Below, in pieces: positions 4,651-50,602 of a stretch of 64,000 nucleotides of DNA; within the stretch, counting starts at the first letter, position 1; each line of letters starts with the position of its first letter. The stretch spans positions 4,431 through 68,430 of the forward strand of contig CAZVQB010000001.1 in assembly GCA_964629235.1 (NCBI GenBank), written 5' to 3'. The position numbers were made by a program, and so were the translations under genes. The stretch is from an uncultured Candidatus Saccharibacteria bacterium (GTDB taxonomy: Bacteria > Patescibacteriota > Minisyncoccia > Phycocordibacterales > PALSA-1337). The notes under the pieces are model-generated. The model worked only from the letters and a program-made list of their open reading frames with translations. It made no database searches and was not told where the DNA came from.

Positions 4651-5634
4651 ATGTCAAAAAGTGTTAATAAACAGAGTTCAAATCTATGGGAAAAGCTCAA
4701 AAAACCCATATTTGTCATAGCTCCTATGGCAAATGTGACAGATACAGCATTCCGCTCAATGTTTGCAAAATACGGCAAACCAGACGTTATGTGGACTGAA
4801 TTCGTATCAGCAGATGGGCTATGTTCTCCTGGTAAGAAAATGCTTTTGCGTGATCTAGAATATTCTGAGAATGAGAGACCAATAGTTGCTCAACTTTTTA
4901 CTGGTCATCCAGACAAGATGTTTGAAGCTGCGAAGCTAGTCGAGAGTCTTGGTTTTGATGGTGTAGATATAAACATGGGTTGTCCTGATAGAGCAGTAGA
5001 GAAACAGGGTTCAGGTGCTGGTCATATAAAAGATCCAGAAAATGCAAAAAAAGTTTTGGAAGCAGCAAGAGCAGGTGCACCGAATATTCCAATATCTATT
5101 AAGACAAGAATTGGTTATAACAAAGTTGAGATTGATACTTGGATTAGATTTCTTTTGGAACAAAAGTTACCAGCTTTAACAGTTCATCTAAGAACAAGAA
5201 AAGAAATGTCAGATGTTCCTGCACATTGGGAGCTTATGAATAAAATTGTTAAATTAAGAGATGAGATTTCACCAAAGACATTGATAATAGGGAATGGAGA
5301 TGTATTGAGTATCGAGCATGGTAAAAAGTTAATAGAAGAAACAGGTTGTGATGGTGTTATGGTTGGCCGTGGAATATTCGGGAATCCTTGGTTTTTTTCT
5401 GGAAAAGTTTTGGCAGACATTTCACCCAAAGATCGATTAAACGTGATGCTTGAACATGCAAAAGCTTTTGATAAAAAACTAGGTGATGTGAAGAATTTTG
5501 CAATAATGAAAAAACATTTTAAAGCTTATGTTTCAGGGTGGGATGGGGCAAAAGAATTGCGAGTAAAACTCATGGAGACAGAAAATATACAAGATGTGGA
5601 TAAAGTAGTTAAAGAATACTTGAAAAATATTTAA
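4651..5634 (+). CDS. dus: tRNA-dihydrouridine synthase
   Basis: Dus family motifs FVIAPMANVTD and VDINMGCP in a TIM-barrel FMN enzyme; 327 aa. Confidence 0.8.
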   Translation: MSKSVNKQSSNLWEKLKKPIFVIAPMANVTDTAFRSMFAKYGKPDVMWTEFVSADGLCSPGKKMLLRDLEYSENERPIVAQLFTGHPDKMFEAAKLVESLGFDGVDINMGCPDRAVEKQGSGAGHIKDPENAKKVLEAARAGAPNIPISIKTRIGYNKVEIDTWIRFLLEQKLPALTVHLRTRKEMSDVPAHWELMNKIVKLRDEISPKTLIIGNGDVLSIEHGKKLIEETGCDGVMVGRGIFGNPWFFSGKVLADISPKDRLNVMLEHAKAFDKKLGDVKNFAIMKKHFKAYVSGWDGAKELRVKLMETENIQDVDKVVKEYLKNI

Positions 5635-5639
5635 TGCGG

Positions 5640-6106
5640 GTGTAATCTTTTAGAAGATTAATCATCACATCGTCTATGTGATGCTGTACCTCTGGTTCAG
5701 TTAGCTCGATAGCTATTGATCGTCAACCGAGAATCCTTAACAAAGGACAATAGGTGAAAACAAATCAATACTGCGTGGCATATCATGGCTCCCCGCCATC
5801 GTGTCACGTTCTCTCCCGCCGATTCGTGTTCCCCTGCGTTCCCCTCGCCACCTCGTGAAGGTTTGGTTCGACGGCTTCTTGGAAGCCTCGCGACAAACTA
5901 TGAGTAGTGCCAACTACTCAGGCTGATGATAGAGAAAACAAAGGATATAGTTCTCAACTAGATGAGATAATGGATGTATTGGCAAATACATAGCGCTAGC
6001 CTGCTTTAGCTTAAAAAATAGCCTGTTTTTTAAAAATAAAGTTTTGTTGATGAAGATTAGTGCTCATCGTCTCTATCGCACCCTCCAAGTGGAGGGTGCT
6101 TTTTTA
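5640..6106 (+). ncRNA. GC-elevated structured ncRNA candidate upstream of dnaX (class unresolved: tmRNA/RNase P/SRP-like)
   Basis: About 460 nt with no credible ORF and much higher GC than the flanks, with C-rich/G-rich tracts (ctcccgcc, tcccctgcgttcccctcgccacc). A GGTTCGACGG motif is present. The element ends in a strong intrinsic terminator (gcaccctcc-aagt-ggagggtgc + T6) at 6078-6106, immediately 5-prime of dnaX. Confidence 0.35.
6078..6106 (+). terminator. intrinsic terminator (9-bp GC stem + T-run)
   Basis: gcaccctccaagtggagggtgctttttt. Confidence 0.75.
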
Positions 6107-6118
6107 TTTATGATATAA

Positions 6119-7201
6119 TTGATGTATTATATTTCAGTTATGTCAGACAAAAATTCTACAAATCCAAAATCCTCTTCAGTTTTATATAGGAAATACAGAC
6201 CATACAATTGGTCTGACGTTGTTGGGCAAGATCATATAATATCTGTTTTAGAGAATTCTATTAAACTTGATAAGATCGCTCACGCATATCTTTTTTCTGG
6301 TAGTAGAGGCACGGGTAAGACCTCTATTGCTCGTATATTCGCTCGTGCACTTGGTGTAAGTGACAATGATGTATATGAGATGGATGCAGCTTCAAATCGC
6401 GGTATAGACGATATACGAGAGATTCGTGATGGTGTAAGTGTTCTACCTTTTGAATCAAAATATAAAGTCTATATCATAGATGAAGTACACATGCTTACAA
6501 AAGAAGCATTCAATGCTTTGTTAAAGACTTTGGAAGAACCTCCAGCACATGCGATTTTTATCCTAGCTACAACTGAGACTGATAAAATTCCTGAGACGGT
6601 TCTTTCTCGATGTCAGATTTTTAGTTTTAAAAAGCCGAATAGGGAAGTATTAAAGACTTTGGTAAATAAAATAGCTAAGAAAGAAGGATTCACTATAGAT
6701 ACTGGTGTTGCTGATCTTATCGGTTTACTTGGAGATGGATCTTTTAGAGATACTTTGGGAATATTACAAAAAGTTATAAGTTCATCTTCTGATAAAAAGA
6801 TTTCAATGAAGGAAGTTGAAGAGATAACTGGAGCTCCAAGAGGGGAGTTGGTAAATAATTTTATATCTTCGCTAGCTTATGGTGATAAGGATCAAGCTTT
6901 TTCAATAATATTAAAAGTAAAAGAAGCAAATATTTCAATAAAGACATTTATTTCATTGATTCTAGAAAAAATTAGAATAATTTTAATTCTAAAGAATGTA
7001 AATTCTATATCATCAGTTGAATCGTTGAAACAGAGTGTATCAGAAGATGATTGGGTTATTTTGGAAAAGATTTCAAAAGATGAAAAAAGTAAAGTAGGAT
7101 TAAGTATGCTAAGAGAATTGTTGAAGGCTTATGATTTGACTTCCTATTCTTATATTGAGACTTTGCCTCTAGAAATAGCTATTGTTGACATAGTTTTATA
7201 G
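6119..7201 (+). CDS. dnaX: DNA polymerase III subunit gamma/tau (short form)
   Basis: AAA+ clamp-loader motifs (GSRGTGKTSIARIFARAL, SRC motif LSRCQIF); only 360 aa. Confidence 0.85.
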   Translation: MMYYISVMSDKNSTNPKSSSVLYRKYRPYNWSDVVGQDHIISVLENSIKLDKIAHAYLFSGSRGTGKTSIARIFARALGVSDNDVYEMDAASNRGIDDIREIRDGVSVLPFESKYKVYIIDEVHMLTKEAFNALLKTLEEPPAHAIFILATTETDKIPETVLSRCQIFSFKKPNREVLKTLVNKIAKKEGFTIDTGVADLIGLLGDGSFRDTLGILQKVISSSSDKKISMKEVEEITGAPRGELVNNFISSLAYGDKDQAFSIILKVKEANISIKTFISLILEKIRIILILKNVNSISSVESLKQSVSEDDWVILEKISKDEKSKVGLSMLRELLKAYDLTSYSYIETLPLEIAIVDIVL

Positions 7202-7204
7202 CGT

Positions 7205-7428
7205 GATACTATTCTGTGGACGGGTTCCTTAAATATTATGAAGCATATTATCATTGCTCGGCGTATCGGAGGAAAGCCGGAGAGAGTCGTGAGGTTGATC
7301 GAGATTTCGACACCCCCACCGAACAACGCAGTCGTGATCAATGACCACTGGAAACACAGGGTCATTCGACAAGGCACATAAGAGTCGCCAAACAGCCCTG
7401 TACGTACTATACGTACAGGGTCTTTTTT
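7205..7428 (+). ncRNA. structured ncRNA candidate downstream of dnaX (contains GAGGAAAGCCGGAG; class unresolved)
   Basis: About 220 nt GC-elevated ORF-less segment. It ends in an intrinsic terminator (ccctgtacgta-ctat-acgtacaggg + T-run, 7396-7428). Its motif tcGGAGGAAAGcCGGag resembles the RNase P P4 strand GAGGAAAGUCCGG and SRP domain IV purine-rich motifs, but the element is too short for a typical RNase P RNA. Confidence 0.3.
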
Positions 7429-7439
7429 CCACAATTTTA

Positions 7440-7695
7440 TTTGAAATCAGATTTGGGTTGTGATAATCTAGATTTTGGCTAGTTAATGACTCAAACCTAT
7501 GAATAAAGGTACCGTATTGCATCACCGAATCGGTCAAACCGATTCAATGCGCAAAAACAGGCGGAAGAAGGGATATACTCTTCCTGTCGGAATCAGACGT
7601 CATATGAGGAAGAGTTCTGAGGAAGGAGGTGAACACAAGTAGTGTTTGAAGAGTTCATCGTTCAATCCCCGAGTACATGTACTCGGGGATTTTGT
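7440..7695 (+). ncRNA. second possible small RNA / leader with its own terminator
   Basis: Purine-rich repeats (ggaagaaggg, gaggaagag, gaggaaggagg) are followed by a hairpin atccccgagtacatgtactcggggat + TTTGT at 7665-7695. No convincing ORF is present. Confidence 0.2.
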
Positions 7696-7736
7696 ATACT
7701 TGAGTTTATCTCGTTTTTAATGTATTTTAATAGTAT

Positions 7737-7810
7737 TGCGGGATCGTATAATGGTAGTACAGCGGCCTTTGAAGCCGTGAATCTTGGTTCGATTCCAAGT
7801 CCCGCAGCCA
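7737..7810 (+). tRNA. tRNA-Gln (anticodon TTG)
   Basis: Manual fold: acceptor TGCGGGA/TCCCGCA (7/7 pairs), anticodon stem-loop GCGGC-CTTTGAA-GCCGT with anticodon TTG, T-arm CTTGG-TTCGATT-CCAAG, encoded CCA. Total length 74 nt. Confidence 0.85.
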
Positions 7811-7916
7811 ACATGAGCTAGCTCAAAGATAGCTAGTTTACAAACAAAAACACCTCTTAAATTTGAAAGGCGTTTTTGTTGTTTTATATTGCAACAAAAT
7901 ATGCCATAATCTTTAT

Positions 7917-8090
7917 ATGAAAGATGGTGTCAAAAAGCTGGGAGAAAATATCAAAAAATTTAGGATCAAAAAAGATGTTAGCTAAACAGAACTTGCTCGT
8001 GTGTTGAGCGTTGTTTGATCTTTTGTGAGTAATATCGAGATTATATTGATGATGCAATTAGAGCTAGTTGCTAAGCTATGCAGACTTAAA
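7917..8090 (+). pseudogene. decayed XRE-family HTH regulator gene (in-frame TAA and TGA)
   Basis: Translation gives MKDGVKKLGENIKKFRIKKDVS*TELARVLSVV*SFVSNIEI..LELVAKLCRLK. This matches the XRE/Cro-C1 HTH pattern (..LSQ.ELA..LGVSRS.IS.IE.G....LE.L.KL...L) but is interrupted by two stop codons. Confidence 0.55.
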
Positions 8091-8146
8091 TTTTTATTTC
8101 ATACTCGTGCTAGTAAAAATACTATTTTCTGATAATATCATGGGTA

Positions 8147-8662
8147 ATGAATAAACCATTATTTACTAATGAATATATAGGAAACGCTGGTGTTAAATAT
8201 GTTTTCAAATACTACGATTCAGATAATTTTGACCATTTACCAAAAGACAGAATAAAGCAATCCTACGCTGTAGCTTTTTATAAAGACAAATTTCTAGTTG
8301 TTAATAATATAAAAAATCCTAAACAGCAATACGGGCTAATTGGAGGTAGTGTTGAAGAGGGGGAAGATCCAAATGAAACTTTAATCCGAGAAATTATGGA
8401 AGAATCAAGGATGAAAGTCTTAGAATATAAGTTAATTGGTTATCAAAAGGTGATTGATACTCGAGGAATTCAAAAAGATTTTTATCAACTAAGATATTTT
8501 GCAAGAGTTGAACCTGATGGTTTTTTTATTTCTGATCCTGCAGGTTGTGTTACAGAGATTATTGAGTGCACAAAAGATGACTATAAAAAATATTTTGATT
8601 GGGGTGAGATAGGTGATTATATAATTAAAAGAGCATATGAAATTAAACAACCATCAGCATAA
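8147..8662 (+). CDS. NUDIX hydrolase
   Basis: Nudix box GGSVEEGEDPNETLIREIMEESRM matches GX5EX7REUXEEXGU. Confidence 0.65.
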   Translation: MNKPLFTNEYIGNAGVKYVFKYYDSDNFDHLPKDRIKQSYAVAFYKDKFLVVNNIKNPKQQYGLIGGSVEEGEDPNETLIREIMEESRMKVLEYKLIGYQKVIDTRGIQKDFYQLRYFARVEPDGFFISDPAGCVTEIIECTKDDYKKYFDWGEIGDYIIKRAYEIKQPSA

Positions 8663-9683
8663 TTATTTGATTTCTACTTTTGATGGTTTGGGCGATGGAG
8701 TTATTTACTATCCAATTATTAGGTCTGTTGCAGAAGGCAATCCACGAAATCTATTTTATTGTGCGACAAACTTATTTTTTTCTGATAAAGACATATTAGA
8801 AAAACTAGACTTACCAAAAAATATCAAATTCGTTACTGAAGAATTTAGAAAGTTTCCAGAAGAAAACTATAATTATATATTAAACTTTTTATCTGAAAAT
8901 AATATAAAAAAAATAATAAATTTGAGATTTATCGGTAGAGATTTTGAAAAAGGCTACTTCAAATTCAAAGATCATGCAGAATCTAATAATCTAGATTTAA
9001 ATTTTTATGATAGTGAAAATATTTCTTTTTTTGAGAGCAACCATAACGCTCGGTCTGTGGTTTTAAAGATATTTGAAAATACCCTCGGTGGTGAAATTAA
9101 ATACAATGAATTTATACTGAAAACTATTTTCCCAGTATCTGATGATTCCGATGCTATTTTTATAAATATGCACTCAAGAGGCGATTTTAAATTATGGAAT
9201 ATCAATAAATGGTCTGAAGTTATCTCATCAATGGTTTTTTATGGTAAGAAGGTTTATGTTTATGACGGTTATGATGAAAAGGAAAAGGAATATACACGAA
9301 AAGTATTTGATAACTTAAGCCAAATCGTGAAAGGTAAAATTAATCTTTTGGTTGATAGTAATTTATTAGATTTGATATCTACTCTACAAAAGGCCAAATT
9401 GTTAATCTCAGTTGATTCTGGATTAATACATTTGGCTGATGCTGTCGGAGTCGAGTCTATAGGTATTTATCTAACCACCTCTCCTAGAATGTGGGGAGGT
9501 GTAACTGAAAAATTTCATTTTGTACAAAGTCTCCACATGAGAAATTGCAAAAAATTCTATAAACAATTTGGTATGTGTATGAATGGTAAGAAAAAATGCG
9601 AAGAGATTGAGGGTGAGAGTGACGATATAGACATTCATGAAATTTTTAATATAGTTAATAATATCTATGAAAAAGAAAATTAA
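8637..9683 (+). CDS. glycosyltransferase family 9 (heptosyltransferase-like)
   Basis: C-terminal motif LISVDSGLIHLADAVGVESIGIY matches the GT9 DSGpmHlAaAlg signature. Confidence 0.6.
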   Translation: MKLNNHQHNYLISTFDGLGDGVIYYPIIRSVAEGNPRNLFYCATNLFFSDKDILEKLDLPKNIKFVTEEFRKFPEENYNYILNFLSENNIKKIINLRFIGRDFEKGYFKFKDHAESNNLDLNFYDSENISFFESNHNARSVVLKIFENTLGGEIKYNEFILKTIFPVSDDSDAIFINMHSRGDFKLWNINKWSEVISSMVFYGKKVYVYDGYDEKEKEYTRKVFDNLSQIVKGKINLLVDSNLLDLISTLQKAKLLISVDSGLIHLADAVGVESIGIYLTTSPRMWGGVTEKFHFVQSLHMRNCKKFYKQFGMCMNGKKKCEEIEGESDDIDIHEIFNIVNNIYEKEN

Positions 9684-11505
9684 GCTAGCAGTTTTTGTTG
9701 ATGGAGATTTTATACCATCATATGATGGTGCTTCTAACCGATTTCACTATTTATCTAGGTATTTATCAAAACAAGGTATTGACCTGACTATATTTCATGG
9801 GTATAGAGGTTGGTCTAATATCTCTTTAATAAAAAAAGAGCCCTTTAAGACATACGTTTTTCCGATAGATAATTACTACAATAATCTTGAATTAATAGCA
9901 TCAATTTTGATTAAGGAAGGAGTAAACATTATTCAATTTGATAATCTTGAACCAATTCTCTTACAGGGAATTAAATTATCAAAACTTACTGGCGCTAAAT
10001 TGGTTAGCGAGATGCATTATGTGGTAAGAAGTTTGGCGAAAAGATTAGGCGCAGATAATGAGAGGCTATCTGAGATAGAGAAAATAGAATATGAAGTTGG
10101 TAAAAATATTGATCATTTAATATGTCTGAGTGAGCAAGATAAACCGTCTTTGATTAAGTATTTAAATATAGATGCTGATAAAGTATCGGTTATTCCTAGC
10201 GGGGTAGATATTAATGAGATTAAATACTTTGTTTCAGATTTTAAATCCAGAAATATTGTTTTTCTGGGGAATCTATATTTCAAACCCAATGAGGATGCGG
10301 TTAGGATTATAAAGGAAAAAGTATATCCAAAATTAAAAGATCAAGGTTTTAAATTTACTGTTGGAGGTGATTGTCCTCCGGATATTCAAAAAGAATTAAC
10401 TGATAAAAATTTTACTTTCATAGGCACAGTTCCTAATCTTAATGATTTGTTTAAGAATGCAACTTTTGCTCTGGCCCCCATTTTTGAAGGAACTGGTATG
10501 CGTATTAAATTATTGAATTATTTAGCTGCTGGTATCCCTGTTATAACTACGTCGATTGCTACAAATGGCTTTAACCAAAAAGAAGCTTTTATTGTTGAAG
10601 ACGATGTCTCAAAATACGCAGACATTATTCTAGATTTAGTTAATGATAAGAGGAAATTAAAAAATGTATCTAAAAGAGGACATAAGATTATTAAGAAATT
10701 TTATGATTGGAAAATTGTTGCTAAAAGAACAATTAAGACTTATAAAAATATTTTAAAAGAAAGAAATGTAGAAAAATTTGGTAACCATAGTATATTGAAA
10801 ACTAAAGAACCGGTATGGCTCCAAGAAGCTGTTGCCAAGCAAAGATTTAAACAGATTAAGAATCCTAGTCTACCAAAAGATTTTTCATATTGTGTTATAG
10901 AAAATAATTATATTAAAGATTATACTCTTAAAAAAATAGTTGCTTTGGAAGGTATGCCTGGTGCAGGTAAGACTACTTTTATAAATAGTTATGTAAAAAA
11001 TAATGGTAATATAAAATTCTTACCACAACTAGAGATTAAAAATAGAAAGATTTTAGAGAGAGATAATTTGGAAACAACTAAAATGTTTTTGTCTGCTGAA
11101 AAAGAAAAAAGTGATCTTATTAATCAAATTGCAAAAGAAAATAAGGAAATTGTAATTGATCGAACATTTTTAACTACCTTGGCATATTGTTATGCTAGGT
11201 CGAAAAAACTTAAAAATGATGAATACTCAAAGTTGATAGAGTTTTATAATAAGATTAAAGAAGATATCACTTTCCCTACAAAATTAATTTTCTTAGATGT
11301 TGAGAATAAAAGGAGTCTAGAAAGGAGAAGGCGATTTGCTAATAACCCCGATTACTCTAATTGGTTTGATGAAGAATTTTTAAATCATATGCGCGAATTT
11401 TATAAAAAAGAAATATCCAAATTTATTAACATAAAAGTTGATTATGTCGATACAACAAGTATGTCTATAGAAGAAGTTAGCAATACATTAAAAGAAATTA
11501 TATGA
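9667..11505 (+). CDS. bifunctional protein: N-terminal GT4/GT1 glycosyltransferase fused to C-terminal P-loop (TMPK/dNK-like) kinase domain
   Basis: Residues ~1-360 carry the GT4 signature (GTGMRIKLLNYLAAGIPVITT). Residues ~420-612 carry a Walker A motif (VALEGMPGAGKTTF) and a DR(Y)-like motif (VIDRTFLTTLAYCY) typical of thymidylate/deoxynucleoside kinase folds. Confidence 0.6.
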   Translation: MKKKIKLAVFVDGDFIPSYDGASNRFHYLSRYLSKQGIDLTIFHGYRGWSNISLIKKEPFKTYVFPIDNYYNNLELIASILIKEGVNIIQFDNLEPILLQGIKLSKLTGAKLVSEMHYVVRSLAKRLGADNERLSEIEKIEYEVGKNIDHLICLSEQDKPSLIKYLNIDADKVSVIPSGVDINEIKYFVSDFKSRNIVFLGNLYFKPNEDAVRIIKEKVYPKLKDQGFKFTVGGDCPPDIQKELTDKNFTFIGTVPNLNDLFKNATFALAPIFEGTGMRIKLLNYLAAGIPVITTSIATNGFNQKEAFIVEDDVSKYADIILDLVNDKRKLKNVSKRGHKIIKKFYDWKIVAKRTIKTYKNILKERNVEKFGNHSILKTKEPVWLQEAVAKQRFKQIKNPSLPKDFSYCVIENNYIKDYTLKKIVALEGMPGAGKTTFINSYVKNNGNIKFLPQLEIKNRKILERDNLETTKMFLSAEKEKSDLINQIAKENKEIVIDRTFLTTLAYCYARSKKLKNDEYSKLIEFYNKIKEDITFPTKLIFLDVENKRSLERRRRFANNPDYSNWFDEEFLNHMREFYKKEISKFINIKVDYVDTTSMSIEEVSNTLKEII

Positions 11506-12401
11506 AAGATATAAGTGTTATTATTCCAACATACCAACATAAAGATAGAGACATTCATCTGGGACTACTTCTCGACACCCTCCTAGTTGAAAGTAATCTA
11601 AAATATATTAATGAAATCTTAATCATAGACAATGGGTGTGCTTTAGATGGAAGTTCATTTGAAACTCAAAGTGCAGAAATAAAAATAATTAAAGAGCCTT
11701 TATTAGGTTTAAATAATGCTAGAAATTGTGGAATTTCTAATGCTAGTGGATTTATATTTGCTTTTCTAGATGACGATGTAACTGTTTCTAAGGATTGGTC
11801 TAAAGGAATATATAATGGATATAACAATAGAGGTGTTTTATGTGTTGGTGGCTCCGTCTCGTTGGGTGAGTATAATCTGAAATTGCCAAATTGGTTATCT
11901 GATTATTTCAAAAGGTTTTTGTTTCCTCCGAATTTTCCAGAAAATTCTGGAATACTAAAATTGCCATATTATTTGATTGGTGCAAATATGTCTTTCAAAA
12001 AGGAGGTCTTTGATAAATTTGGTCTATTTAATTCAGAACTGGATCGTAAAGGCAATAATCTATTATCCAATGGAGATACTGAATTTATTATTAGATTACC
12101 CACACAGTCTATATGGTATTCAGATGAAGCTCGAGTATCTACAATTGTAAAAATAGATAGATTTACCAGATTTTTTATGATTAAAAGATTATTTTGGCAA
12201 GGAATATCAGACTATATTATGGTTAAAGAAAATGGTACTTCTAATTTCTATGATAAGAATGAGATATTTTTCAGTAATAAATTTTTAAAGATATTTTTTC
12301 ATAAATTAGTCACACTCAAACTTTTTGAAGTTTTTTGTATTGTAGTTAGAATTGTGGGATTTCGTATGGGAATTTTTTATATTAAAGAAAAGAGGGGGTA
12401 G
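11502..12401 (+). CDS. glycosyltransferase family 2
   Basis: GT2 motifs ISVIIPTYQH, DNGC and FLDDDV. Confidence 0.65.
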   Translation: MKDISVIIPTYQHKDRDIHLGLLLDTLLVESNLKYINEILIIDNGCALDGSSFETQSAEIKIIKEPLLGLNNARNCGISNASGFIFAFLDDDVTVSKDWSKGIYNGYNNRGVLCVGGSVSLGEYNLKLPNWLSDYFKRFLFPPNFPENSGILKLPYYLIGANMSFKKEVFDKFGLFNSELDRKGNNLLSNGDTEFIIRLPTQSIWYSDEARVSTIVKIDRFTRFFMIKRLFWQGISDYIMVKENGTSNFYDKNEIFFSNKFLKIFFHKLVTLKLFEVFCIVVRIVGFRMGIFYIKEKRG

Positions 12402-12419
12402 AATCTTTCTACCCCCTCT
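12391..12419. terminator. perfect 12-bp palindrome hairpin spanning both convergent stop codons (bidirectional terminator candidate)
   Basis: AGAGGGGGTAGA-atctt-TCTACCCCCTCT. The left arm encodes the ...KRG* end of GT2 and the right arm (reverse complement) encodes the ...KRG* end of the TMPK-like gene. Confidence 0.6.
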
Positions 12420-12972
12420 TGATGATCTTGAGTATTTCGTTGACGGCGTTTTGAGGACCATCGACGGTATCGTCAATATGGTGTTGTATTCGTTTTTTAA
12501 ATTCCACAAGGCACCGACGCTCCATCTCTTGTCGAAGATTGAATTTCTCCATGTCCTTGACTGGTCCACCACGGCTGTAAAGTCGTTGTTGTCGCTTTTC
12601 TTCGTCACAAACTATCAGGAAAACATAGTCCGGCATGCGACAAAGGTGCTCGAAAGTTTCCTTGATATCGAGCCCATACACTGTGTGATAGCATATAGTC
12701 GACCAGATGTACTTATCACAGACAACGCTTTGGGTTTCCAGGGTCCTGCTAATCTCCCAGGAGGCATGTGCCACCGAAGAGAGATAAAACAAAAATCTGG
12801 ATCCTAGCGAAAGCCTGAGATCAGCCTCTTCCCGCATCTTACTGAATGGTGCGGGGGGAGTGGCGTAGTACTTGGCTGGTAGTTGTTGAGCCAACATCTT
12901 GGAAACTTCCGTCTTGCCGCTACCAGAAATACCTTCGATCACAATGAACAAGTTTGGATTTTTCTGATCCAT
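12409..12972 (-). CDS. thymidylate-kinase-like P-loop nucleotide kinase (GC-rich, likely horizontally acquired)
   Basis: Walker A motif FIVIEGISGSGKTEV and a DRY-equivalent CDKYIW; 187 aa. Local GC is roughly 45-48% against ~30% in neighbouring genes. Confidence 0.55.
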   Translation of the reverse strand: MDQKNPNLFIVIEGISGSGKTEVSKMLAQQLPAKYYATPPAPFSKMREEADLRLSLGSRFLFYLSSVAHASWEISRTLETQSVVCDKYIWSTICYHTVYGLDIKETFEHLCRMPDYVFLIVCDEEKRQQRLYSRGGPVKDMEKFNLRQEMERRCLVEFKKRIQHHIDDTVDGPQNAVNEILKIIKRG

Positions 12973-13039
12973 TTCATACTCCTTTCTGGTTAGGTGTCTT
13001 CCATAACTATATAACTAATATAGTTATGTGTCAATTTTA

Positions 13040-13555
13040 TTAAAAATAAGATTCTAACTTTTTTGTTAAATCGTATAGTTGATCTTTCCCAGCTAGTCCT
13101 TCGCAGTGTTCAAGAAATGTTCTAATGCTAGTAATATATTTGTCGTTATTAACGAACTTAGGAAACAGATGCTGTTCATTTCTTGCGTATATTTTTATAA
13201 AATTTCTCATATGGGAGGTAAAATCAGCCATCTTTATTAATTTACCGCCATTAGATATGGTTTTGATCCCTTCGTAATATTTAAGTTTTTGTTGTTCGTT
13301 ATAGTTTTTAGGGTGAGATACTTCTTGAACCATATCTGCTACTTCTCTTGAAAAATTTTCGGTTATTTCTTCATATGTTGCTGAAGTGTCTTCGAGCGTA
13401 TCGTGCAGTAATCCAGCTATTAAGACAGTTTCATCTTGGACTTCAAATTCATCTCTTAAAATTTGAAATACATCTAGAAAGTGATTCTTTTTGCTGATTT
13501 CTTCGAATTTTTTTGTTGCATATTCTTTTGCTAATTCTATTTTTGTGTGGTCCAT
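13040..13555 (-). CDS. HD-domain phosphohydrolase of RelA/SpoT type (small alarmone hydrolase-like)
   Basis: Motif IAGLLHDTLEDTSATYEEI matches the ppGpp-hydrolase HD signature (AALLHDvvEDT); 171 aa with no synthetase domain. Confidence 0.55.
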   Translation of the reverse strand: MDHTKIELAKEYATKKFEEISKKNHFLDVFQILRDEFEVQDETVLIAGLLHDTLEDTSATYEEITENFSREVADMVQEVSHPKNYNEQQKLKYYEGIKTISNGGKLIKMADFTSHMRNFIKIYARNEQHLFPKFVNNDKYITSIRTFLEHCEGLAGKDQLYDLTKKLESYF

Positions 13556-16539: not shown

Positions 16540-17256
16540 ATGACGACAAGTGAACTCAGTTGGAACAAGGTTTCGTTTTTGGCCAAACTGCAGTTATATT
16601 TCAAATCAACGAATGACTTTAAAATGAAGGTATGGTCAGCAAATATTCTTGAACGTGCCGAAGCCTATTCCGCACTGTCTAGTTGCTATTATAGTATAGT
16701 TGGAACTGGAATAGCACATTTCAAAAACATCTTCAGAGATGATTGGAAATTTTTCTTATTTCCAGTGCTGACTGTGATTTGGTTTTTAACATGGTTTCCA
16801 TTAGTGCTTGGATGTTATATAAATATGCTTCGCTATTCGAACCAGGTAGTGAAGCTTATTGGTTACGACACCATGACAGTTGATCAGCTTGATATTCGAC
16901 AGAGTATACTACGTTGTACCTTTCAATATAAAGAGGCGAAATCTTGTATATATTTAGCACTTAAGAAAAATCCTGAAAAACCACATACAAGAGGATTGCT
17001 AAATGTTGGACTTGCAGAAATCCTTATAAAAGATGGTGATAGGATGAGCGCGAAATTTGAGTTGGCGCGTGCTGTAACTGAAGCCAAAGTTTCAGAAGAA
17101 GATAATCCCCAACAAGCTGTGCGTATTTACAGACATTGCGCAAGATTATACTTCAGACTTAATGATAACTTCATAATAGATGGGGAACTTTGTCTTCATA
17201 AAGCAAGAACTATTGCTTTAAAAATTGAAGCCATGGACCAAGTGATCAAAATGTAA
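16540..17256 (+). CDS. hypothetical membrane protein
   Basis: 238 aa with central hydrophobic helices (FFLFPVLTVIWFLTWFPLVLGCYI). It is followed by a strong terminator at 17261-17294. Confidence 0.3.
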   Translation: MTTSELSWNKVSFLAKLQLYFKSTNDFKMKVWSANILERAEAYSALSSCYYSIVGTGIAHFKNIFRDDWKFFLFPVLTVIWFLTWFPLVLGCYINMLRYSNQVVKLIGYDTMTVDQLDIRQSILRCTFQYKEAKSCIYLALKKNPEKPHTRGLLNVGLAEILIKDGDRMSAKFELARAVTEAKVSEEDNPQQAVRIYRHCARLYFRLNDNFIIDGELCLHKARTIALKIEAMDQVIKM

Positions 17257-19516: not shown

Positions 19517-19550
19517 AAAACACCCGCACGACTGTCGTGCGGGTGAATTG

Positions 19551-20139
19551 CTATTCTCCAGGGTGATTCCAATCAAAGAAAACCCTACCTTCACGTTTGG
19601 TAATGTCTTCATGATCACCACCACTAGGGTCTCTCAAAGGACCAATGTATTTTCCAGGATAAATAGTAAGAATCGATGCAAAAATGTTATGACTATCATT
19701 AAAAATACCGTAAACAATAGAAACCAGTGAGGTTCTCGGTGCTTTGATATCAATAAGATGTTTTGCAACTCTCAATCCGACACTTCGATTGTTAGGATTA
19801 AAACTTTCGAGATGACCAAGGTTGTAGTGTTCAATCGAATCAGTTGACTCCCAACCGATTGTTTCTTCGAAATCGAGAGTAACTACACCCATTTTGCAAT
19901 CCTTGTTCTCATTGAGTGTACGGACGATACTCCTATACATTTCATCGCCAAAGTCGAAATCACCGTCGTATGCAAATTCCTCAAACGTATTCCATTTAGA
20001 GAAATTACCAGCGAGTTCATGATGAACCCCACGAAAACAGGTTCCATTGAGTCTGAGACGCGTTTTCCTTGTATAAAGGATACCAAATTTATAATGGTCG
20101 ATAGTTTTTCTGTAGAAATTTTCAAGATTTTCCTTTCAT
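19551..20139 (-). pseudogene. GC-shifted gene of unknown function requiring a +1 frameshift near its start (frameshifted/pseudo or slippery start)
   Basis: One reading frame is open from 20135 to 19551 (~195 codons). The only ATG (20139) lies in another frame: atg aaa g|gaa aat.... The ORF track splits it into 19883..20125 and 19551..19940. A terminator hairpin is present at 19521-19545. Confidence 0.4.
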
Positions 20140-22007: not shown

Positions 22008-22150
22008 ATACTAAAAAGCTATTAAAAATTCGTATAAAGTTGAGAGTCCATTAAAGCATAAAAATTAAATTTAAGCAAGATAAATTCTATTAAATAAGTA
22101 AAAGAAAAACCCGCTTACAATATATGTAAGGCGGGTCTTCGAATGTTGTA

Positions 22151-22501
22151 TTAGGCTGACTCGATAGTACTTCTTCGTACTGAGGTCGAGACCTGCTGGT
22201 GAATAGGGAGAGCGAATGTAAACATTCCGAAATTATTCCCAACCTTCCTACTGTGTATGACCGCCGTAAAACGCTGACCGGTTGATTTGACATAACCATC
22301 AAATCCAATATCTTTGGAATGCTTGGTTCTGGTCACTGTATTTACTACCAAGTTGAAGGTCTGAGATTTTTCCCTGCAACCTCTCTCAATGACTACGACC
22401 TCCAATGTTGTATTGTCGTCACTACTCATGAGCGCTTTTAGTAATTGCTCTCGAACCACCTTTCTGACAATTAAATACTGTCCATCCATATTAACCTCCA
22501 T
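22151..22501 (-). CDS. hypothetical protein (GC-shifted singleton)
   Basis: 116 aa with no recognisable motif. Local GC is well above the flanks. Its own terminator lies at 22103-22136. Confidence 0.3.
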   Translation of the reverse strand: MEVNMDGQYLIVRKVVREQLLKALMSSDDNTTLEVVVIERGCREKSQTFNLVVNTVTRTKHSKDIGFDGYVKSTGQRFTAVIHSRKVGNNFGMFTFALPIHQQVSTSVRRSTIESA

Positions 22502-27990: not shown

Positions 27991-29211
27991 ATGAACAAAG
28001 AAAAATTTTCTAAAATATCTTATACAGCAATTGGAATACTATTAATCGTCATTATATTCTTTATAGGGAACATTTATGGTCAGAATAAAGGCAAAAATCA
28101 GGCACTACTTAGTCTTGCACCTGAAGGAGTAAATATTAAGAATGAACAACTAGAACCATTTTGGAAAGTCTGGGGAATAATAAATGATAAATATGTAGAG
28201 GCAACAACTACAGATACACAAAAGAGGATTTGGGGAGCAATATCAGGTCTAGCAAGTTCACAAGGTGATCCATATACAGTTTTCTTCCCACCTGAAGAGA
28301 GTAAATCATTTAAGAGTGATATAAGCGGTAACTTTGAAGGTGTAGGAATGGAAATCGCTATTAAAGATAAGTTTCTGACTGTTGTAACCCCTATAAAGAA
28401 CAGCCCCGCAGAAAAAGCCGGAGTAAAAGCAGGAGATAAAATCATAAAAATAGATGATAAAGTTGTAGCGGATCAGCCTGTTGATCAAGCAGTAAAGCTT
28501 ATTCGAGGCGCAAGAGGAACAAAAGTAAAGATTGTATTTATGAGAGAAGGAGTTACTGGCCCAATAGAGAAATCAATAGTTCGTGATGTGATAGATATAC
28601 CAACTATAGAAACAGAAGTTAAGTCTGATATATTTATTATAAAGCTATTCAGCTTCACTAGCCAGTCTCCAAATCTATTTAGAGATGCTCTTAGAGAATT
28701 CCTACAATCTGGTAAAAATAAATTAATTATTGACCTGAGAGGGAATCCAGGAGGATATCTAGATGCCGCTTGGGACATAGCTAGCTGGTTCTTACCAGCA
28801 GGCAAAGTGATCGTTACAGAAGATTTTGGCGGAAAAGGGGAGAATAGGGTTTTCCGAAGTAAGGGTTACGATGTAATGAATACATATTTTACTGGAGGTT
28901 ATAAAGTCGCAGTTCTGGTAGATGGTGGTTCAGCATCAGCAGCAGAAATCCTTGCTGGAGCACTGCAAGAACAAGGAGTTGCGAAGCTTGTTGGTACAAA
29001 GACATTCGGAAAAGGTTCTGTACAAGAACTTATAGAGATTACTCCAGAAACTTCATTGAAAGTAACTGTTGCTAGATGGTTAACTCCAAGTGGGCACAAC
29101 CTATCACACGATGGTTTGAACCCAGACTTCGTAATTCCTGTAACACCAAAAGATATCGAAACCAAGAACGATGTTCAGACTCAAAAAGCTATTGAAATTT
29201 TAACTAAATAA
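27991..29211 (+). CDS. carboxyl-terminal processing protease (peptidase S41, Ctp/Prc-like) with PDZ domain
   Basis: N-terminal signal anchor, PDZ domain, and S41 catalytic motifs (GNPGGYLD; ...SASAAEILAGALQE..). Confidence 0.8.
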   Translation: MNKEKFSKISYTAIGILLIVIIFFIGNIYGQNKGKNQALLSLAPEGVNIKNEQLEPFWKVWGIINDKYVEATTTDTQKRIWGAISGLASSQGDPYTVFFPPEESKSFKSDISGNFEGVGMEIAIKDKFLTVVTPIKNSPAEKAGVKAGDKIIKIDDKVVADQPVDQAVKLIRGARGTKVKIVFMREGVTGPIEKSIVRDVIDIPTIETEVKSDIFIIKLFSFTSQSPNLFRDALREFLQSGKNKLIIDLRGNPGGYLDAAWDIASWFLPAGKVIVTEDFGGKGENRVFRSKGYDVMNTYFTGGYKVAVLVDGGSASAAEILAGALQEQGVAKLVGTKTFGKGSVQELIEITPETSLKVTVARWLTPSGHNLSHDGLNPDFVIPVTPKDIETKNDVQTQKAIEILTK

Positions 29212-30159: not shown

Positions 30160-30615
30160 ATGATTGAACTTACAACAGGTATCATGTTTCTTATGTCCTC
30201 AATGTACGGAGCAGGTAGTTATTCGGTAAATGCTGTAAATTTTCAACCATTAACAGCTACTACTTCGAAAAATACTGCTGCAGCTATAGATAGTATGGAT
30301 AGAGCAGCACTTGAAAAATATCTAAGAGAACACTTTGCTGATACACCTATCCTTGTTGAAATCGCTAGATGTGAATCAACATTTAGACAATTCGATAAAG
30401 ACGGTAAGGTTATCAGAGGTAAGGTAAACAGTGCAGACGTAGGTGTTATGCAAATAAATGAAAAGTACCATCTAGAAACTGCAAAGAAACTTGGTTTAGA
30501 CATACACACAGTAGACGGTAACATAGCTTATGCTAAGTATCTTTACTCAAAGTATGGAGCTGAACCATGGAGTGCATCATCACCATGTTGGGGGAATGCA
30601 GTTGCAGTTAAATAA
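30160..30615 (+). CDS. secreted lytic transglycosylase/lysozyme-like protein
   Basis: Signal-like N-terminus. ARCESTF....DVGVMQINEKYH resembles the SLT/GEWL catalytic Glu and GLMQ motifs. Confidence 0.5.
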   Translation: MIELTTGIMFLMSSMYGAGSYSVNAVNFQPLTATTSKNTAAAIDSMDRAALEKYLREHFADTPILVEIARCESTFRQFDKDGKVIRGKVNSADVGVMQINEKYHLETAKKLGLDIHTVDGNIAYAKYLYSKYGAEPWSASSPCWGNAVAVK

Positions 30616-30684
30616 ATATAAACAAAAGCCGGCCTAGCCGGTTTTTGTTTTGTGGGTTATCATGGATATAGAAAGGAGGTAATT

Positions 30685-30796
30685 GTGAAAATCAAATTAT
30701 CTAGAATATTGGCTCCATTGAATCCCGACACAGCTATTGGTATCATCATGCTTTGTATTATCTGCACAATCATATATGCAGTGTTTTATTTTTGAT
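30685..30796 (+). CDS. 37-aa hydrophobic micropeptide with strong RBS
   Basis: AAAGGAGGtaattGTG start. Product MKIKLSRILAPLNPDTAIGIIMLCIICTIIYAVFYF. Bracketed by terminators at 30626-30648 and 30807-30846. Confidence 0.35.
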
Positions 30797-30806
30797 CAGA
30801 AAAAAT

Positions 30807-30846
30807 AAAAACCAGCTACTCTACTGAAGTAGCTGGTTTTGTTTTA
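30807..30846 (+). terminator. intrinsic terminator
   Basis: aaaaccagctact-ctactgaa-gtagctggtttt. Confidence 0.7.
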
Positions 30847-31266
30847 ATCTTGGAATCGTGTAGGTGATTCTGTTGAATCATTATGCAGAAAGTACATTGA
30901 GATCAAGGTCCGTGTTGGACTAAGGATGATGCTACCGTTCTTACCTTTGATATTGACCAGTTTTTTCGGTAAGACTCCTCTCCAGTCGATGATTCTCAAA
31001 AGTGATTTTCTACTGATACCACTTATCAAGAATTTACCATGATCACTTCCGGAAAAAGAGATGAAATCAGTGATTGAAATTTCTCTCCAACAACCGATGA
31101 GTTGCCAGTACCGAATAAGAGACCAGATCACTAATCGATGGAATCTTATCGGCATTAGTTTATCGAAACCCTTAGGTTCGCAACTAGTTGAGAGATGCCG
31201 TGGCAAAATCGGATATTTCTGCACGGTCGATATTTTAATTCGTGGCATATTATTCCTTCTGAACAT
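30844..31266 (-). CDS. hypothetical protein (GC-shifted singleton)
   Basis: 140 aa with no recognisable family. GC is higher than the surrounding sequence. An AT-rich ~290 bp gap lies upstream. Confidence 0.3.
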   Translation of the reverse strand: MFRRNNMPRIKISTVQKYPILPRHLSTSCEPKGFDKLMPIRFHRLVIWSLIRYWQLIGCWREISITDFISFSGSDHGKFLISGISRKSLLRIIDWRGVLPKKLVNIKGKNGSIILSPTRTLISMYFLHNDSTESPTRFQD

Positions 31267-31558
31267 AAACTACCATAGTTATTTTTTATTATCTAGTGCA
31301 AGATATATTGTTGCACACCAGGGCAGGGAATTTAGCTCAAAATTAGACCCAGTCTTCCCCGATTCATTTTTTAATAAAAGGCACATGACATGCAGGGTAG
31401 AGAATAAGTAAATAAAAATGTATTAAATATAAAATATTTGTAGATTATTTTATCTATAGAAATATATTTATTAAATAATTTAATGCATACTAAGTATCAA
31501 TGGGTGATAGGTTTCCAGACCTTTTCTCCTCTATATACAACGTCGCACAATATATCTT

Positions 31559-31882
31559 TTACGCAATGTATAGGGCTAAAATACTGCCCCGATATATAGA
31601 AAAAAGCACCTTATGGTTGGTGCTTAATTCTTCTTTTACTGTTCCCTGCATCTTTTCATCTAATTTCTTTAGTGTTGGACTCCATACATATTTTATAAAT
31701 ACTTCTTTCCAAATAAATTCTGCTGGAATTTTTAAATATTTATTCCAAACAATAACTGTAAGTTCTTTAGCGAAATTAATGTTATTTTGAGCTGCAGTGT
31801 TTTCTAGAGCCTTTTTAACGTCAAAACCAAGGTTACCTAGTATGATGAGACCTATTAAAGCAATTATTAGCCACTTGATCAT
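31559..31882 (-). CDS. hypothetical small membrane protein
   Basis: N-terminal TM helix (MIKWLIIALIGLIILGNLGF). Confidence 0.3.
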   Translation of the reverse strand: MIKWLIIALIGLIILGNLGFDVKKALENTAAQNNINFAKELTVIVWNKYLKIPAEFIWKEVFIKYVWSPTLKKLDEKMQGTVKEELSTNHKVLFSIYRGSILALYIA

Positions 31883-41003: not shown

Positions 41004-41092
41004 GGAGATATTATAGCAGAAATAAAATAGACAAAACAAAAACCCCTCCAATTCGTAAAGAATCAAAGGGGTTAAGAGTTAAAAAACTCAAA

Positions 41093-41581
41093 TCACTCGG
41101 GTAAAACCATGCGATCCAGACATCCAATATCCATGAAATGATCGCTGTGGAAGTGGTCGAGATTTACTCCTAGTTTATTATTATGTATATCAACAACTGC
41201 AACGAAAAATTTTCCAAAAACAATGAATGGAAAGTATGATGAATATCCACTAGGGTGAATATGTTGAGGATAGCTCTCTATCCAAGTCAGGATTTGATCC
41301 TGACTTTTCCAAAGCAGAAGTTCCAGTGAAGTGTTAAAAGAGCCCAATAGCTCTCTATATCCTTTAGCTATCGTAATCTCATATAGAGCTGAGGATGCTG
41401 GGCCTGTAGCAATAGTGGGGACGTTAGTACCTAATTTGCTGAATTTTGAATCGAAAAATCCAGGAAACATGTCACGTTGTGTGTAGAACGTTCGAGTACC
41501 AGTAGTAGCTGGAATGACGAGACCGCTCTCCAACCTGCGGAGGTAAGTCGTTGTTTCAGGCAATGCAGAAATGATAGCCAT
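41093..41581 (-). CDS. hypothetical protein (GC-shifted singleton)
   Basis: 162 aa with no recognisable family and elevated GC. Confidence 0.3.
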   Translation of the reverse strand: MAIISALPETTTYLRRLESGLVIPATTGTRTFYTQRDMFPGFFDSKFSKLGTNVPTIATGPASSALYEITIAKGYRELLGSFNTSLELLLWKSQDQILTWIESYPQHIHPSGYSSYFPFIVFGKFFVAVVDIHNNKLGVNLDHFHSDHFMDIGCLDRMVLPE

Positions 41582-41675
41582 AACAGAATATTGAGTTATA
41601 TTTATACAGAACTATTTACCAAAAAATACCAGATATGTACTACTGTGTCAAATAGTGTATATTAAACTGCAATTA

Positions 41676-43072: not shown

Positions 43073-44017
43073 TTATATTACACCAATTGCTGTCTTTGCT
43101 GCAAAAAGCTTTTCATCCGCTATCTCTCTCGCTTTTATTGCACCATCTTCTAGTATCTCTTCAACTTTATCAATATCTTTTGCTAACATCTCTCTTCTCT
43201 CTCTAAGTGGTTTTATAAAAGCATCTAGATCTTCTATCAATGCTTCTTTTAGAATCTTATACTTGCCCTTATTCTCATCATATATCTTTTTCAAATCTGC
43301 TTCTGTTCTAAATAGTTTGTGAATATTATAAACATTCATCGGGATTTCTCCGCTTGAATCAGTTACAATTCCCATCACTGCTTTAGTAATCTCTTCGCGA
43401 GTAGAGAAAAGTGGAATAGTATTACCGTAACTCTTAGACATCTTTTGTCCATCTGTTCCAGGAATAATAGCGACACTTTGCATGATGTATGGATCTGGAA
43501 GTTTAAATACTTCACCGAAAGTATTGTTGAACTTCTGTGCTATATCTCTAGTGTATTCAATATGTTGTTTTTGGTCTTGCCCAACTGGAACAATATCTGC
43601 ATCATAAAGCAGAATATCTGAAGCCATTAGAATCGGATAGTTGAATGTACCAACCGAAATCTCTTTGTCTTTTGCTTCAGCGTCCTTGAAAGCATGAGCT
43701 CTCATAAGATATGGCATTGTTGTAATAGTATCGAATATCCAAGTTAGCTCTGTGTGCGCATTTATATCAGACTGTTTAAATATTAGAGACTTCTCAGGAT
43801 CCAAACCTATAGCGAGATAGTCTAGAGCTAGATCTAAAGTATTTTTTCTCATCTCATCACCATTTTGAATGAAGTTCAAAGCATGATAATTGGCAATCAT
43901 AAAACGGCAATCATATTGAGATTGTAAATCAGTGAACTGTTTCATTGCTCCGAAATAATTACCAATATGAGGTCTACCTGTTGGCTTTACTCCAGAAAGT
44001 AATATCTTTTTTGACAT
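43073..44017 (-). CDS. trpS: tryptophanyl-tRNA synthetase
   Basis: HIGH-like motif (KPTGRPHIGNYFGA) and KMSKS motif (KMSKSYGN); 314 aa. Confidence 0.85.
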   Translation of the reverse strand: MSKKILLSGVKPTGRPHIGNYFGAMKQFTDLQSQYDCRFMIANYHALNFIQNGDEMRKNTLDLALDYLAIGLDPEKSLIFKQSDINAHTELTWIFDTITTMPYLMRAHAFKDAEAKDKEISVGTFNYPILMASDILLYDADIVPVGQDQKQHIEYTRDIAQKFNNTFGEVFKLPDPYIMQSVAIIPGTDGQKMSKSYGNTIPLFSTREEITKAVMGIVTDSSGEIPMNVYNIHKLFRTEADLKKIYDENKGKYKILKEALIEDLDAFIKPLRERREMLAKDIDKVEEILEDGAIKAREIADEKLFAAKTAIGVI

Positions 44018-50371: not shown

Positions 50372-50378
50372 CATTTTT

Positions 50379-50513: not shown

Positions 50514-50602
50514 CGGGACGGATGTCCAAAGTTCTTCGCAACAATACAACAGGTTGGCCTAGAAAGGGCCAGGTTACCTGCATAAGAAAACCACATAAAT
50601 AA

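Follow-up and report, generated by a model that had tools for sequence, protein, structure and literature searches.

A GC-rich thymidylate-kinase-fold gene in a conserved glycosylation cassette, and orphan genes with putatively exchanged alleles, in a Candidatus Saccharibacteria contig

The kinase gene and its cassette

Several small genes of deviating base composition lie in the window analysed here, a 64,000-nucleotide stretch of contig CAZVQB010000001.1 from an uncultured Candidatus Saccharibacteria bacterium. The most extreme of them, at 12409-12972 on the minus strand, encodes a divergent P-loop kinase of 187 aa with the thymidylate kinase (Tmk) fold. A previous, sequence-only reading had taken this gene, together with four other open reading frames (ORFs), for scattered single-gene insertions from a higher-GC donor. 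Here we show that the kinase gene belongs permanently to a conserved cassette, with which it is inherited vertically, and that its high GC is a trait of the family, found in 14 of 14 loci.

Overall GC of the window is 33.9%, above the ~30% background assumed earlier, and its background genes (n=62) have a GC of 0.337 ± 0.031 and a third-codon-position GC (GC3) of 0.232 ± 0.039. The kinase gene, with the highest GC of any gene in the window, is an extreme outlier (GC 0.466, GC3 0.527, z(GC3) 7.5, binomial p 3e-19), 22151-22501 (GC 0.425, GC3 0.453, z(GC3) 5.6) and 30844-31266 (GC 0.390, GC3 0.404, z(GC3) 4.4) are clear ones, 41093-41581 is moderate (GC 0.411, GC3 0.356, z(GC3) 3.2), and 19551-20135 is marginal (GC 0.381, GC3 0.318, z(GC3) 2.2). 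The outliers pointed out by the sequence-only reading are thus present (GC3 z 2.2-7.5), with a shift that is smaller and less uniform than it had described: two of the five ORFs fall in the 42-48% GC range it gave, and the other three do not. An equal shift is seen in two genes that it had missed, 50603-51127 (ClpP-like, GC3 0.411) and 49955-50371 (GC3 0.374). Hairpin terminators of their own were correctly attributed to these genes, as a hairpin and T run follow all five ORFs, and that most lack recognisable domains holds for scans with Pfam, NCBIfam, PHROGs and PADLOC. The claim that they oppose their neighbours in orientation was mostly wrong: the kinase gene is co-directional with the HD_4 gene upstream of it, and 22151 and 41093 with the genes on both sides.

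Assembly artefact or contamination is ruled out as a source of these outliers, since identical sequence recurs on many independent contigs; for the kinase with its flanks, 7 of 10 contigs from independent assemblies have the identical sequence. Known structured RNAs do not explain the GC-rich patches either, because Rfam found only a tRNA-Gln, both in the whole window (at the gathering threshold and at E <= 1) and in 5600-8150 and 30600-31570 (at E <= 10). The window carries the genes of a small chromosome and not of a mobile element, with BipA, DnaB, CysRS, L9, L27, Mur ligase, FemAB and MurG, and furthermore FtsW, ScpAB, DnaK/DnaJ and a ribosomal-protein operon; we read it as a piece of the chromosome of a low-GC, Parcubacteria/Paceibacteria-like member of the Patescibacteria.

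So what kind of kinase is encoded at 12409-12972? At the level of the fold, the nucleotide kinase named in the sequence-only reading was borne out: the protein matches Pfam PF02223 (Thymidylate_kin) at 1.4e-19 and 71 bits (cutoff 27 bits). Against the NCBIfam dTMP kinase equivalog TIGR00041 it reaches 64.3 bits, under the cutoff of 83.25 bits. Its best hidden Markov model (HMM) is PDC-M51B from PADLOC (1.2e-28, 98 bits, positions 3-181 of 191), and VakA from the same collection matches at 1e-19 and 70 bits. PDB matches to a profile of 24 family members are thymidylate kinases (best E 9e-13) and one weak putative adenylate kinase (E 1e-4). We found 43 homologues, and those with source names are all Patescibacteria, namely Candidatus Paceibacterota, Zambryskiibacteriota, Parcubacteria group and 'Patescibacteria group' metagenome-assembled genomes.

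With Tmk, the family shares sequence similarity at the fold level over its full length, the P-loop GxxGxGK(S/T), which is invariant as GISGSGKT in the 24 members, and the arginines of the LID region, of which R127 and R130 are equally invariant. In contrast to Tmk, the arginine of the DR(Y/F/H) motif is a lysine (DKY) in 23 of 24 members, and the arginine of the acceptor motif LLF-x-A-x-R-x-x-H is replaced by Val/Ala when the profile is aligned to 3ld9 and 2yof; in established Tmk structures, both arginines are ligands of the dTMP phosphate. Also unlike Tmk, the family carries invariant motifs of its own (YYxTPP, RFLFYLSS and CDKYxxSTxCYH), and the gene is located in a glycosyltransferase cassette beside an HD_4 hydrolase. 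As both acceptor-side arginines are replaced and own motifs are present, with the ATP side kept, the product is, judged from its sequence, a Tmk-fold kinase that we do not file as a dTMP kinase.

The cassette comprises, on the plus strand, a GT9 gene (8637-9683), a GT4 gene (9667-11505) and a GT2 gene (11502-12401), the last of which is convergent with the kinase. This glycosyltransferase part (8637-12401) is low in GC, at 0.28-0.29. Directly upstream of the kinase and on the same, minus strand lies HD_4 (13040-13555; RelA/SpoT-type HD, small-alarmone-hydrolase-like), as it does in 14 of 14 loci. Pfam labels around the kinase are GT9, GT4, GT2, HD_4, PS_pyruv_trans, Exo_endo_phos and NUDIX. 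The GT4 protein is fused to a second, distant TMPK-like P-loop domain at its C-terminus (residues about 422-606, TIGR00041 1e-8), a fusion that is kept in all cassette loci. Recent paralogy between this domain and the kinase was considered and rejected, their identity being merely 22%.

When the window proteins were searched by tblastn in 13 further loci, 10 from GTDB genomes and 3 from metagenomes (14 with the window itself), the same gene order was returned in every one of them: GT9, the GT4-kinase fusion and GT2, then the convergent kinase and HD_4, usually followed by a polysaccharide pyruvyl transferase. Across these loci, the kinase is 47-72% identical to its counterpart in the window and the neighbours are 43-79% identical to theirs, the two moving in step. 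By a correlation of distance matrices, which is not a formal tree test, pairwise identities of the kinase agree with those of GT4, GT2 and HD_4 at r = 0.81-0.90, a range that the neighbours also show when compared to one another, and the ratio of kinase to neighbour identity has no discontinuity between clades. Moreover, in L017-L019, the three closest cassette genomes, where synonymous sites are unsaturated, the proportions of nonsynonymous and synonymous differences (pN/pS) of the kinase (0.06/0.43, 0.11/0.49 and 0.10/0.51) equal those of the neighbours. Together, synteny, co-divergence and equal pN/pS mean that the kinase was inherited vertically with the cassette, and not inserted independently. 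For 12409-12972 the proposed single-gene insertion is therefore contradicted by the conserved slot in 13 other loci, by the co-divergence and by the lack of a net flux from GC to AT (see below); conservation throughout the lineage, which the sequence-only reading had held to be incompatible with insertion, is what we find within the sampled cassette-bearing lineages.

At its 3' end, the kinase gene shares with GT2 a bidirectional hairpin terminator (12390-12420), a 14-pair stem followed by a T run. On each strand, the stem arm is formed by the 12-nt inverted repeat AAGAGGGGGTAG, which encodes K-R-G-stop both ways, and since both stop codons lie within the stem arms, the kinase and GT2 proteins both end in KRG. 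Several homologues also end in RG, and most homologous loci have an analogous hairpin over the stop codon. Upstream of the gene we identified a sigma-70-like promoter on the minus strand (13002-13034), reading TTGACA-17-TATAGT at 13034-13006 with 11 of 12 matches, which is overlapped in operator position by a perfect 11-bp palindrome (13002-13028). The Shine-Dalgarno (SD) sequence GAAAGGAG precedes the ATG. In nearly all 14 loci, a TTGACA box and an AAAGGAG-type SD are found in the spacer between HD_4 and the kinase. The kinase would be transcribed alone, from this predicted consensus promoter to the hairpin shared with the convergent GT2.

The kinase is the cassette gene of highest GC in each of the 14 loci, and the kinase gene exceeds in GC the host genome of every one of them. 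In L042, a genome of 31% GC, the kinase has a GC/GC3 of 0.45/0.49, compared to 0.27-0.31/0.20-0.24 for the cassette neighbours. Synonymous sites of the cassette neighbours are saturated relative to the window, and third-position base use is near uniform in both the window and the L042 copies of the kinase, at a protein identity of 72%. Polarised third-position changes in the kinase are balanced (80 GC-to-AT versus 96 AT-to-GC), with no sign of ongoing amelioration. A localised element embedded in the gene was rejected, as GC3 is raised throughout and neither GC3 nor the conservation of third bases varies along the gene; so was an overlapping or antisense ORF, as the open alternative frames are not conserved among homologues.

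Furthermore, the coding sequence (CDS) of the kinase folds better than its shuffled versions, dinucleotide and synonymous-codon alike, in 12 of the 13 lineages (z averaging -2.9), with a z of -4.0 to -4.4 for the window copy. Of the controls, HD_4 has a z of -0.3 (dinucleotide) and -0.1 (synonymous), GT2 of -0.8, and 14 other window genes of -0.2 ± 1.6. RNAalifold on subclades, compared to shuffles of codon columns, yields z-scores of -1.9, -3.5 and -5.2 for the kinase, and of -0.3, -1.3 and +0.6 for HD_4. An mRNA that is more stable than its shuffles points to a gene-specific compositional constraint, and we infer that the GC of the kinase is held by such a constraint, on composition or on mRNA stability, and not by recent import.

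Orphan genes in fixed slots

The ORFs at 19551-20125, 22151-22489 and 41093-41581 are separate transcription units with terminators of their own, one of them with a promoter-like site. We compared them with contigs of close relatives (L033, L037 and L113), in which the flanking proteins are mostly 92-99% identical to the window and flank pS is 0.2-0.57. In the same slots, between flanks of 96-99% identity, alleles of 19551, 22151 and 41093 are 40-51% identical, with a pS of 0.77-0.82. DNA homology breaks sharply at 19608-20103, 22118-22468 and 41023-41276, and the unalignable part is restricted to the ORF bodies, with first and last codons, promoters and terminators staying alignable between relatives. 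Saturated synonymous sites in the ORF next to unsaturated flanks imply that the alleles are much older than the split of the genomes, which in turn speaks for either gene-sized allelic replacement or very old exchanged alleles. Within this lineage, slot-gene alleles have a GC3 of 0.32-0.45. Elsewhere, members of the slot families exceed the GC of their locus, by much in L110 (55% versus 39%) and L039 (57% versus 38%) and by little in L115 (53% versus 48%).

As such, the idea of acquisition or replacement from a GC-richer source finds support for these three genes, in fixed slots, and fails for the kinase. A comparison of presence and alleles across relatives, as the sequence-only reading had suggested, divides the genes likewise: 19551, 22151, 41093 and 49955 are discontinuous, and the kinase is continuous among L017-L019. 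Conserved flanks, sharp breaks, atypical composition and synonymous saturation confined to the ORF make 19551, 22151 and 41093 resemble genomic islets, or in-situ xenologous displacement, a pattern that does not fit the kinase. In contrast to such islets, their slots have no integrases, repeats or tRNA targets, and the swapped unit is a single small ORF with its own first and last codons as the conserved ends. Within the window, the five ORFs are not repeated, labels of neighbouring genes include no mobility domains, and the sole tRNA is located at 7737-7810. A scan of JGI metagenomes centred on the Mur ligase gene returned relatives of at most 71% identity, none of which carried the orphan genes.

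The 19551 gene (19551-20125, minus strand; hyperdivergent body 19608-20103, terminator 19521-19545) is frameshifted and belongs to a widespread family, as yet without a name, of proteins of about 185 aa with the motifs CFRG..AGNF and FFDWNHPGE, which comprises 225 representative clusters and has no Pfam model. One frameshifted gene had been reported before, and we correct its anatomy here. The stretch from 20135 to 19551 is open in one frame and has no start codon. By comparison with L113, the gene starts at a TTG at 20125, behind an AAAGGA-type SD, and a one-base frame break lies near 20103-20105, beside an A5 run, where the divergent segment has its border. Two independent assemblies contain the identical frameshifted sequence. 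Downstream of BipA, the L113 slot holds an intact homologue with 47% identity and a pS of 0.82. A weak RelE/CdiA-toxin-like fold match was obtained for the family, and no match to any toxin family at the sequence level. In contrast to RNase toxins of the BECR/RelE-ParE type (CdiA-CT, BrnT, PfiT, RelE, HigB), its members are about 185 aa long, twice the toxin size, and no antitoxin-like gene adjoins them in L110, L113, L115 or the window.

Both other slot genes are ORFans. The gene at 22151-22489 (minus strand, 112 aa from a conserved Met; terminator about 22109-22137) lies between YqeY and BipA, is restricted to the lineage and has homologues in only 4 clusters among 5.8 billion. Its L033 allele is 85% identical, with a dN/dS of 0.31 versus 0.02-0.04 for the flanks, and its L113 allele 40% identical (pS 0.82), between flanks of 96-99% identity; GC3 of the alleles is 0.39-0.45 throughout. 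The gene at 41093-41581 (minus strand, 162 aa; terminator 41041-41073, promoter-like site 41623-41651) is situated between an Asp/Asn-tRNA-ligase-like gene and ScpA, and its family has only four clusters. The slot allele in L037 is 51% identical, with a pS of 0.77. Its product has a weak C-type-lectin/FGE-like fold match, and we considered whether it could be the variable protein of a diversity-generating retroelement (cf. TvpA, PDB 2y3c). This was rejected, with no template repeat in the window and no reverse transcriptase seen; in addition, divergence spans the whole gene and not adenine-coded positions, as it would in such proteins.

The ORF at 30844-31266 (minus strand) is doubtful. It lies in a 940-bp spacer of elevated GC, with a hairpin after it (30808-30840), and it has no homologues, no family matches in Pfam, NCBIfam, PHROGs or PADLOC, and no Rfam match. 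Between co-assembled strains (L102 and L103), 13 SNPs fall in the 44 bp of 31092-31135 with no codon-position pattern; contigs L103 and L104 end within the ORF, at 31251 and 31091, and an apparent structural difference of 120 bp in L102 proved to be a run of N. Since GC1 is lower than GC2, alanine is absent from all 140 aa, only some gene callers report it, homologues are lacking and the SNPs follow no pattern, it is probably a non-coding or decayed remnant and not a functional gene.

A further ORF, 49955-50371 (plus strand, 138 aa), is contained in a segment (49958-50602) that is present in the window and absent from the close relative L037. It has no family matches, and its mRNA fold z is -4.1 (dinucleotide) and -5.3 (synonymous). 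The adjoining ClpP-like gene (50603-51127, plus strand) is 79% identical to its L037 counterpart, with flanks at 97%, and among the PHROGs it matches a head-maturation protease best (1e-12). This gene is bracketed by a 135-bp direct repeat (50379-50513 and 51147-51281, 94% identical) with a promoter-like TTAACT-17-TATATT.

A class-Ib aminoacyl-tRNA synthetase gene (tRNA-synt_1b, 43073-44017) was likewise found to differ between relatives, sharing 35-38% identity with the gene that L037 has in this slot (pS 0.77), with flanks of 96-98% identity. With its normal GC of 0.348, it is a xenologous replacement that leaves no compositional signal.

Some further observations concern other parts of the window. 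A gene at 16540-17256 (238 aa, no Pfam family) ranks second in GC3 of the 62 background genes, behind the L27 gene (0.318), and its mRNA has a fold z of -4.3 (dinucleotide) and -3.3 (synonymous). Membership in the GC-shifted set is possible. Just upstream of a dnaX-like gene (6119-7201), the ORF-free stretch 5700-5925 has 52-54% GC and a fold z of -3.2, and Rfam does not match it. As a candidate for a structured RNA, it occupies a position upstream of dnaX that is typical of signal recognition particle RNA in Firmicutes. Beside the glycosylation cassette, the match of strain contig L003 to the window ends at 7794/7795, inside the 3' end of the tRNA-Gln (7737-7810), with other genes beyond, and the adjoining 7201-7736 is 43-44% GC with no credible ORF; the region may be a tRNA-linked variable junction. 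Lastly, a match of Rfam Rickettsia sRNA47 inside the S41 peptidase gene (28866-29065, minus strand; 34 bits versus a gathering threshold of 60, E 4.9e-5) is probably due to chance.

Explaining the GC-rich genes

Taken as a whole, we consider it probable that the small GC-rich genes of this window fall into two classes: a kinase that is co-inherited with its cassette, and orphan slot genes whose alleles are exchanged. The kinase would phosphorylate a nucleotide-like acceptor other than dTMP and may work with the HD hydrolase in the handling of nucleotides or nucleotide sugars for surface-glycan synthesis, its GC level most likely being kept because a stable mRNA fold, or else an unusual set of codons, is selected for. 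The genes at 19551-20125, 22151-22489 and 41093-41581, along with the indel ORF at 49955-50371, would be monocistronic orphans in fixed slots between housekeeping genes. Whole alleles of the slot genes would be exchanged through recombination that takes hold in the flanks and in the conserved ends of the genes, and would be drawn from a GC-richer gene pool that is shared across Patescibacteria. These are phenomena of known kinds, namely a divergent enzyme subfamily and genomic islets that arise by allelic replacement. A bolder version, in which fixed cassette slots swap GC-rich orphan alleles by means of their own end codons and a GC3 about twice that of the genome is imposed on the kinase by selection on mRNA folding, strikes us as rather unlikely. 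If true, the slots would be a population-level system for diversifying proteins of conflict or host interaction (the families with RelE/CdiA-like and lectin-like folds), and the composition of the kinase would be a gene-specific equilibrium that lasts through saturating synonymous divergence.

We must take into account a number of observations that weigh against this two-class explanation. With regard to composition, the elevation of GC3 is weak in L016, L017, L019 and L044, so that the trait varies between loci; at the depth of the kinase divergence, polarising third positions by parsimony is noisy; one unrelated control gene also reaches a fold z of -4.3; and no RNA structure is conserved across the kinase family, the RNAalifold consensus having only 16 pairs (-1.6 kcal/mol), of which a single compensatory change speaks in favour. 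With regard to inheritance, no cassette-bearing relative at ~97% amino-acid identity was recovered, the next-best kinase homologue is 75% identical, and the closest comparison, L042, has saturated synonymous sites; a recent replacement of the kinase allele in this particular lineage may thus stay compatible with the data. The kinase substrate and its link to glycosylation are read from gene neighbourhood alone. At the orphan slots, very old balanced alleles could mimic horizontal replacement.

The chief rival to gene-specific constraint on kinase GC is ancient import: the kinase could have been replaced xenologously in the ancestor of the cassette clades, from a very GC-rich donor, and still be ameliorating slowly, in the absence of selection, which could give similar numbers. 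It would account for the GC excess being largest in one clade (the window, L042 and L043) and weak in L016-L019 and L044, and for the amino-acid usage of the kinase, which is GC-shifted too (R about equal to K, compared to K far above R in the cassette neighbours); the saturated synonymous sites of the neighbours also leave long times available. We nevertheless hold it to be unlikely, as the ratio of kinase to neighbour identity shows no break between clades, third-position flux is balanced where an excess from GC to AT is expected, near-uniform third-position use persists in two lineages at 72% protein identity, and excess folding stability of the mRNA is not predicted by it. That all five ORFs were recently inserted one by one, each independently, from a donor of higher GC, and carry toxin, defence or anti-defence cargo, appears very unlikely. 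All five are GC3 outliers to some degree with terminators of their own, three have allele discontinuities between close relatives, the best HMM of the kinase is a PADLOC phage-defence candidate, and the 19551 family has RelE/CdiA-CT-like fold matches. However, this view is contradicted for 12409-12972 by synteny, by co-divergence and by a pS equal to that of the neighbours, and the hosts of the 14 loci are all lower in GC than the kinase gene. Moreover, no mobility genes, att-like repeats or tRNA lie beside any of the five, our searches returned no viral or phage homologues, none of the 10 kinase neighbours is a PADLOC partner, 30844-31266 is probably no gene, and the shift of 19551 is marginal.

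Could the kinase and HD_4 instead form a nucleotide-based defence or toxin-antidote module, with toxin and immunity genes in the orphan slots, as a repertoire of conflict systems? PDC-M51B and VakA, which we take to be nucleotide kinases beside radical SAM, viperin-type genes, score above the Tmk models and are the top HMMs for the kinase; the pairing of HD_4 and kinase is strict (14 of 14 loci); the hypervariable alleles are typical of conflict genes; and the 19551 family, frameshifted in the window, has BECR/RelE-like fold matches. A distant homologue of the kinase, 27% identical, adjoins a radical SAM gene in a PIN/AAA-rich region of an Acinetobacter plasmid. Yet among the 10 neighbours of the kinase, PADLOC scans and Pfam labels reveal no partner (M51A or radical SAM), the PADLOC matches being a weak CARF9, a weak PDC-S07 and the kinase-like domain of the GT4 fusion itself, and as no partner or radical SAM gene lies nearby, the kinase could not be placed in a PDC-M51 or viperin-associated system. 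In contrast to such systems, its context is that of a glycosyltransferase cluster for glycan biosynthesis and not a defence island, and it evolves at the rate of its housekeeping-like neighbours. No antitoxin-like gene is adjacent to the 19551 family in L110, L113, L115 or the window, and BFVD yielded no matches. An origin from phage or plasmid was rejected, with scans of IMG/VR for the kinase family, 41093 and 22151 giving nothing close, no match among phage records, and plasmid matches of just 26-35% identity; a search of the literature on PDC-M51 and VakA found nothing usable. With one weak RelE/CdiA-like fold match and one partnerless PADLOC kinase match, a toxin or defence role of the listed genes is unproven, and we regard the conflict-module explanation as improbable. 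That the GC-rich patches are overlapping elements or structured non-coding RNAs is, at last, highly improbable. In its favour, islands of high GC in AT-rich genomes often are RNAs, the kinase region has a fold z of -4, 30844-31266 looks non-coding, and 5700-5925 is an ORF-free stretch of 52-54% GC with a z of -3.2. Against this, Rfam matched nothing but a single tRNA, also when small sub-regions were scanned at E <= 10; the products of the kinase gene, 19551, 22151 and 41093 have protein-level homologues with conserved motifs, and the idea is refuted for four of the five; dN/dS is below 1 where measurable; synonymous-site identity of the kinase is overall no higher than that of its neighbours; and no structure is kept across the kinase family.

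What GC outliers mean in reduced genomes

The division into a co-inherited kinase and exchanged slot alleles provides a cautionary case for genome scanning, in which the strongest GC outlier is no import and a clear xenologous replacement, the synthetase gene at 43073-44017, has no GC signal. As the kinase outlier was not imported, and the replaced synthetase has normal GC, deviation in GC alone misclassifies genes in both directions. Furthermore, several leads follow from this study. The conserved cassette of kinase, HD hydrolase and glycosyltransferases is uncharacterised, and its kinase has an acceptor site that is not that of Tmk; the enzyme is a candidate for the handling of nucleotides or nucleotide sugars in salvage-dependent organisms. 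Orphan families in fixed hypervariable slots, one of them widespread and with a toxin-like fold, may mark genes of conflict or host interaction. Finally, the putatively maintained atypical composition of the kinase gene, with the excess stability of its mRNA, bears on how base composition is shaped in AT-rich, reduced genomes.

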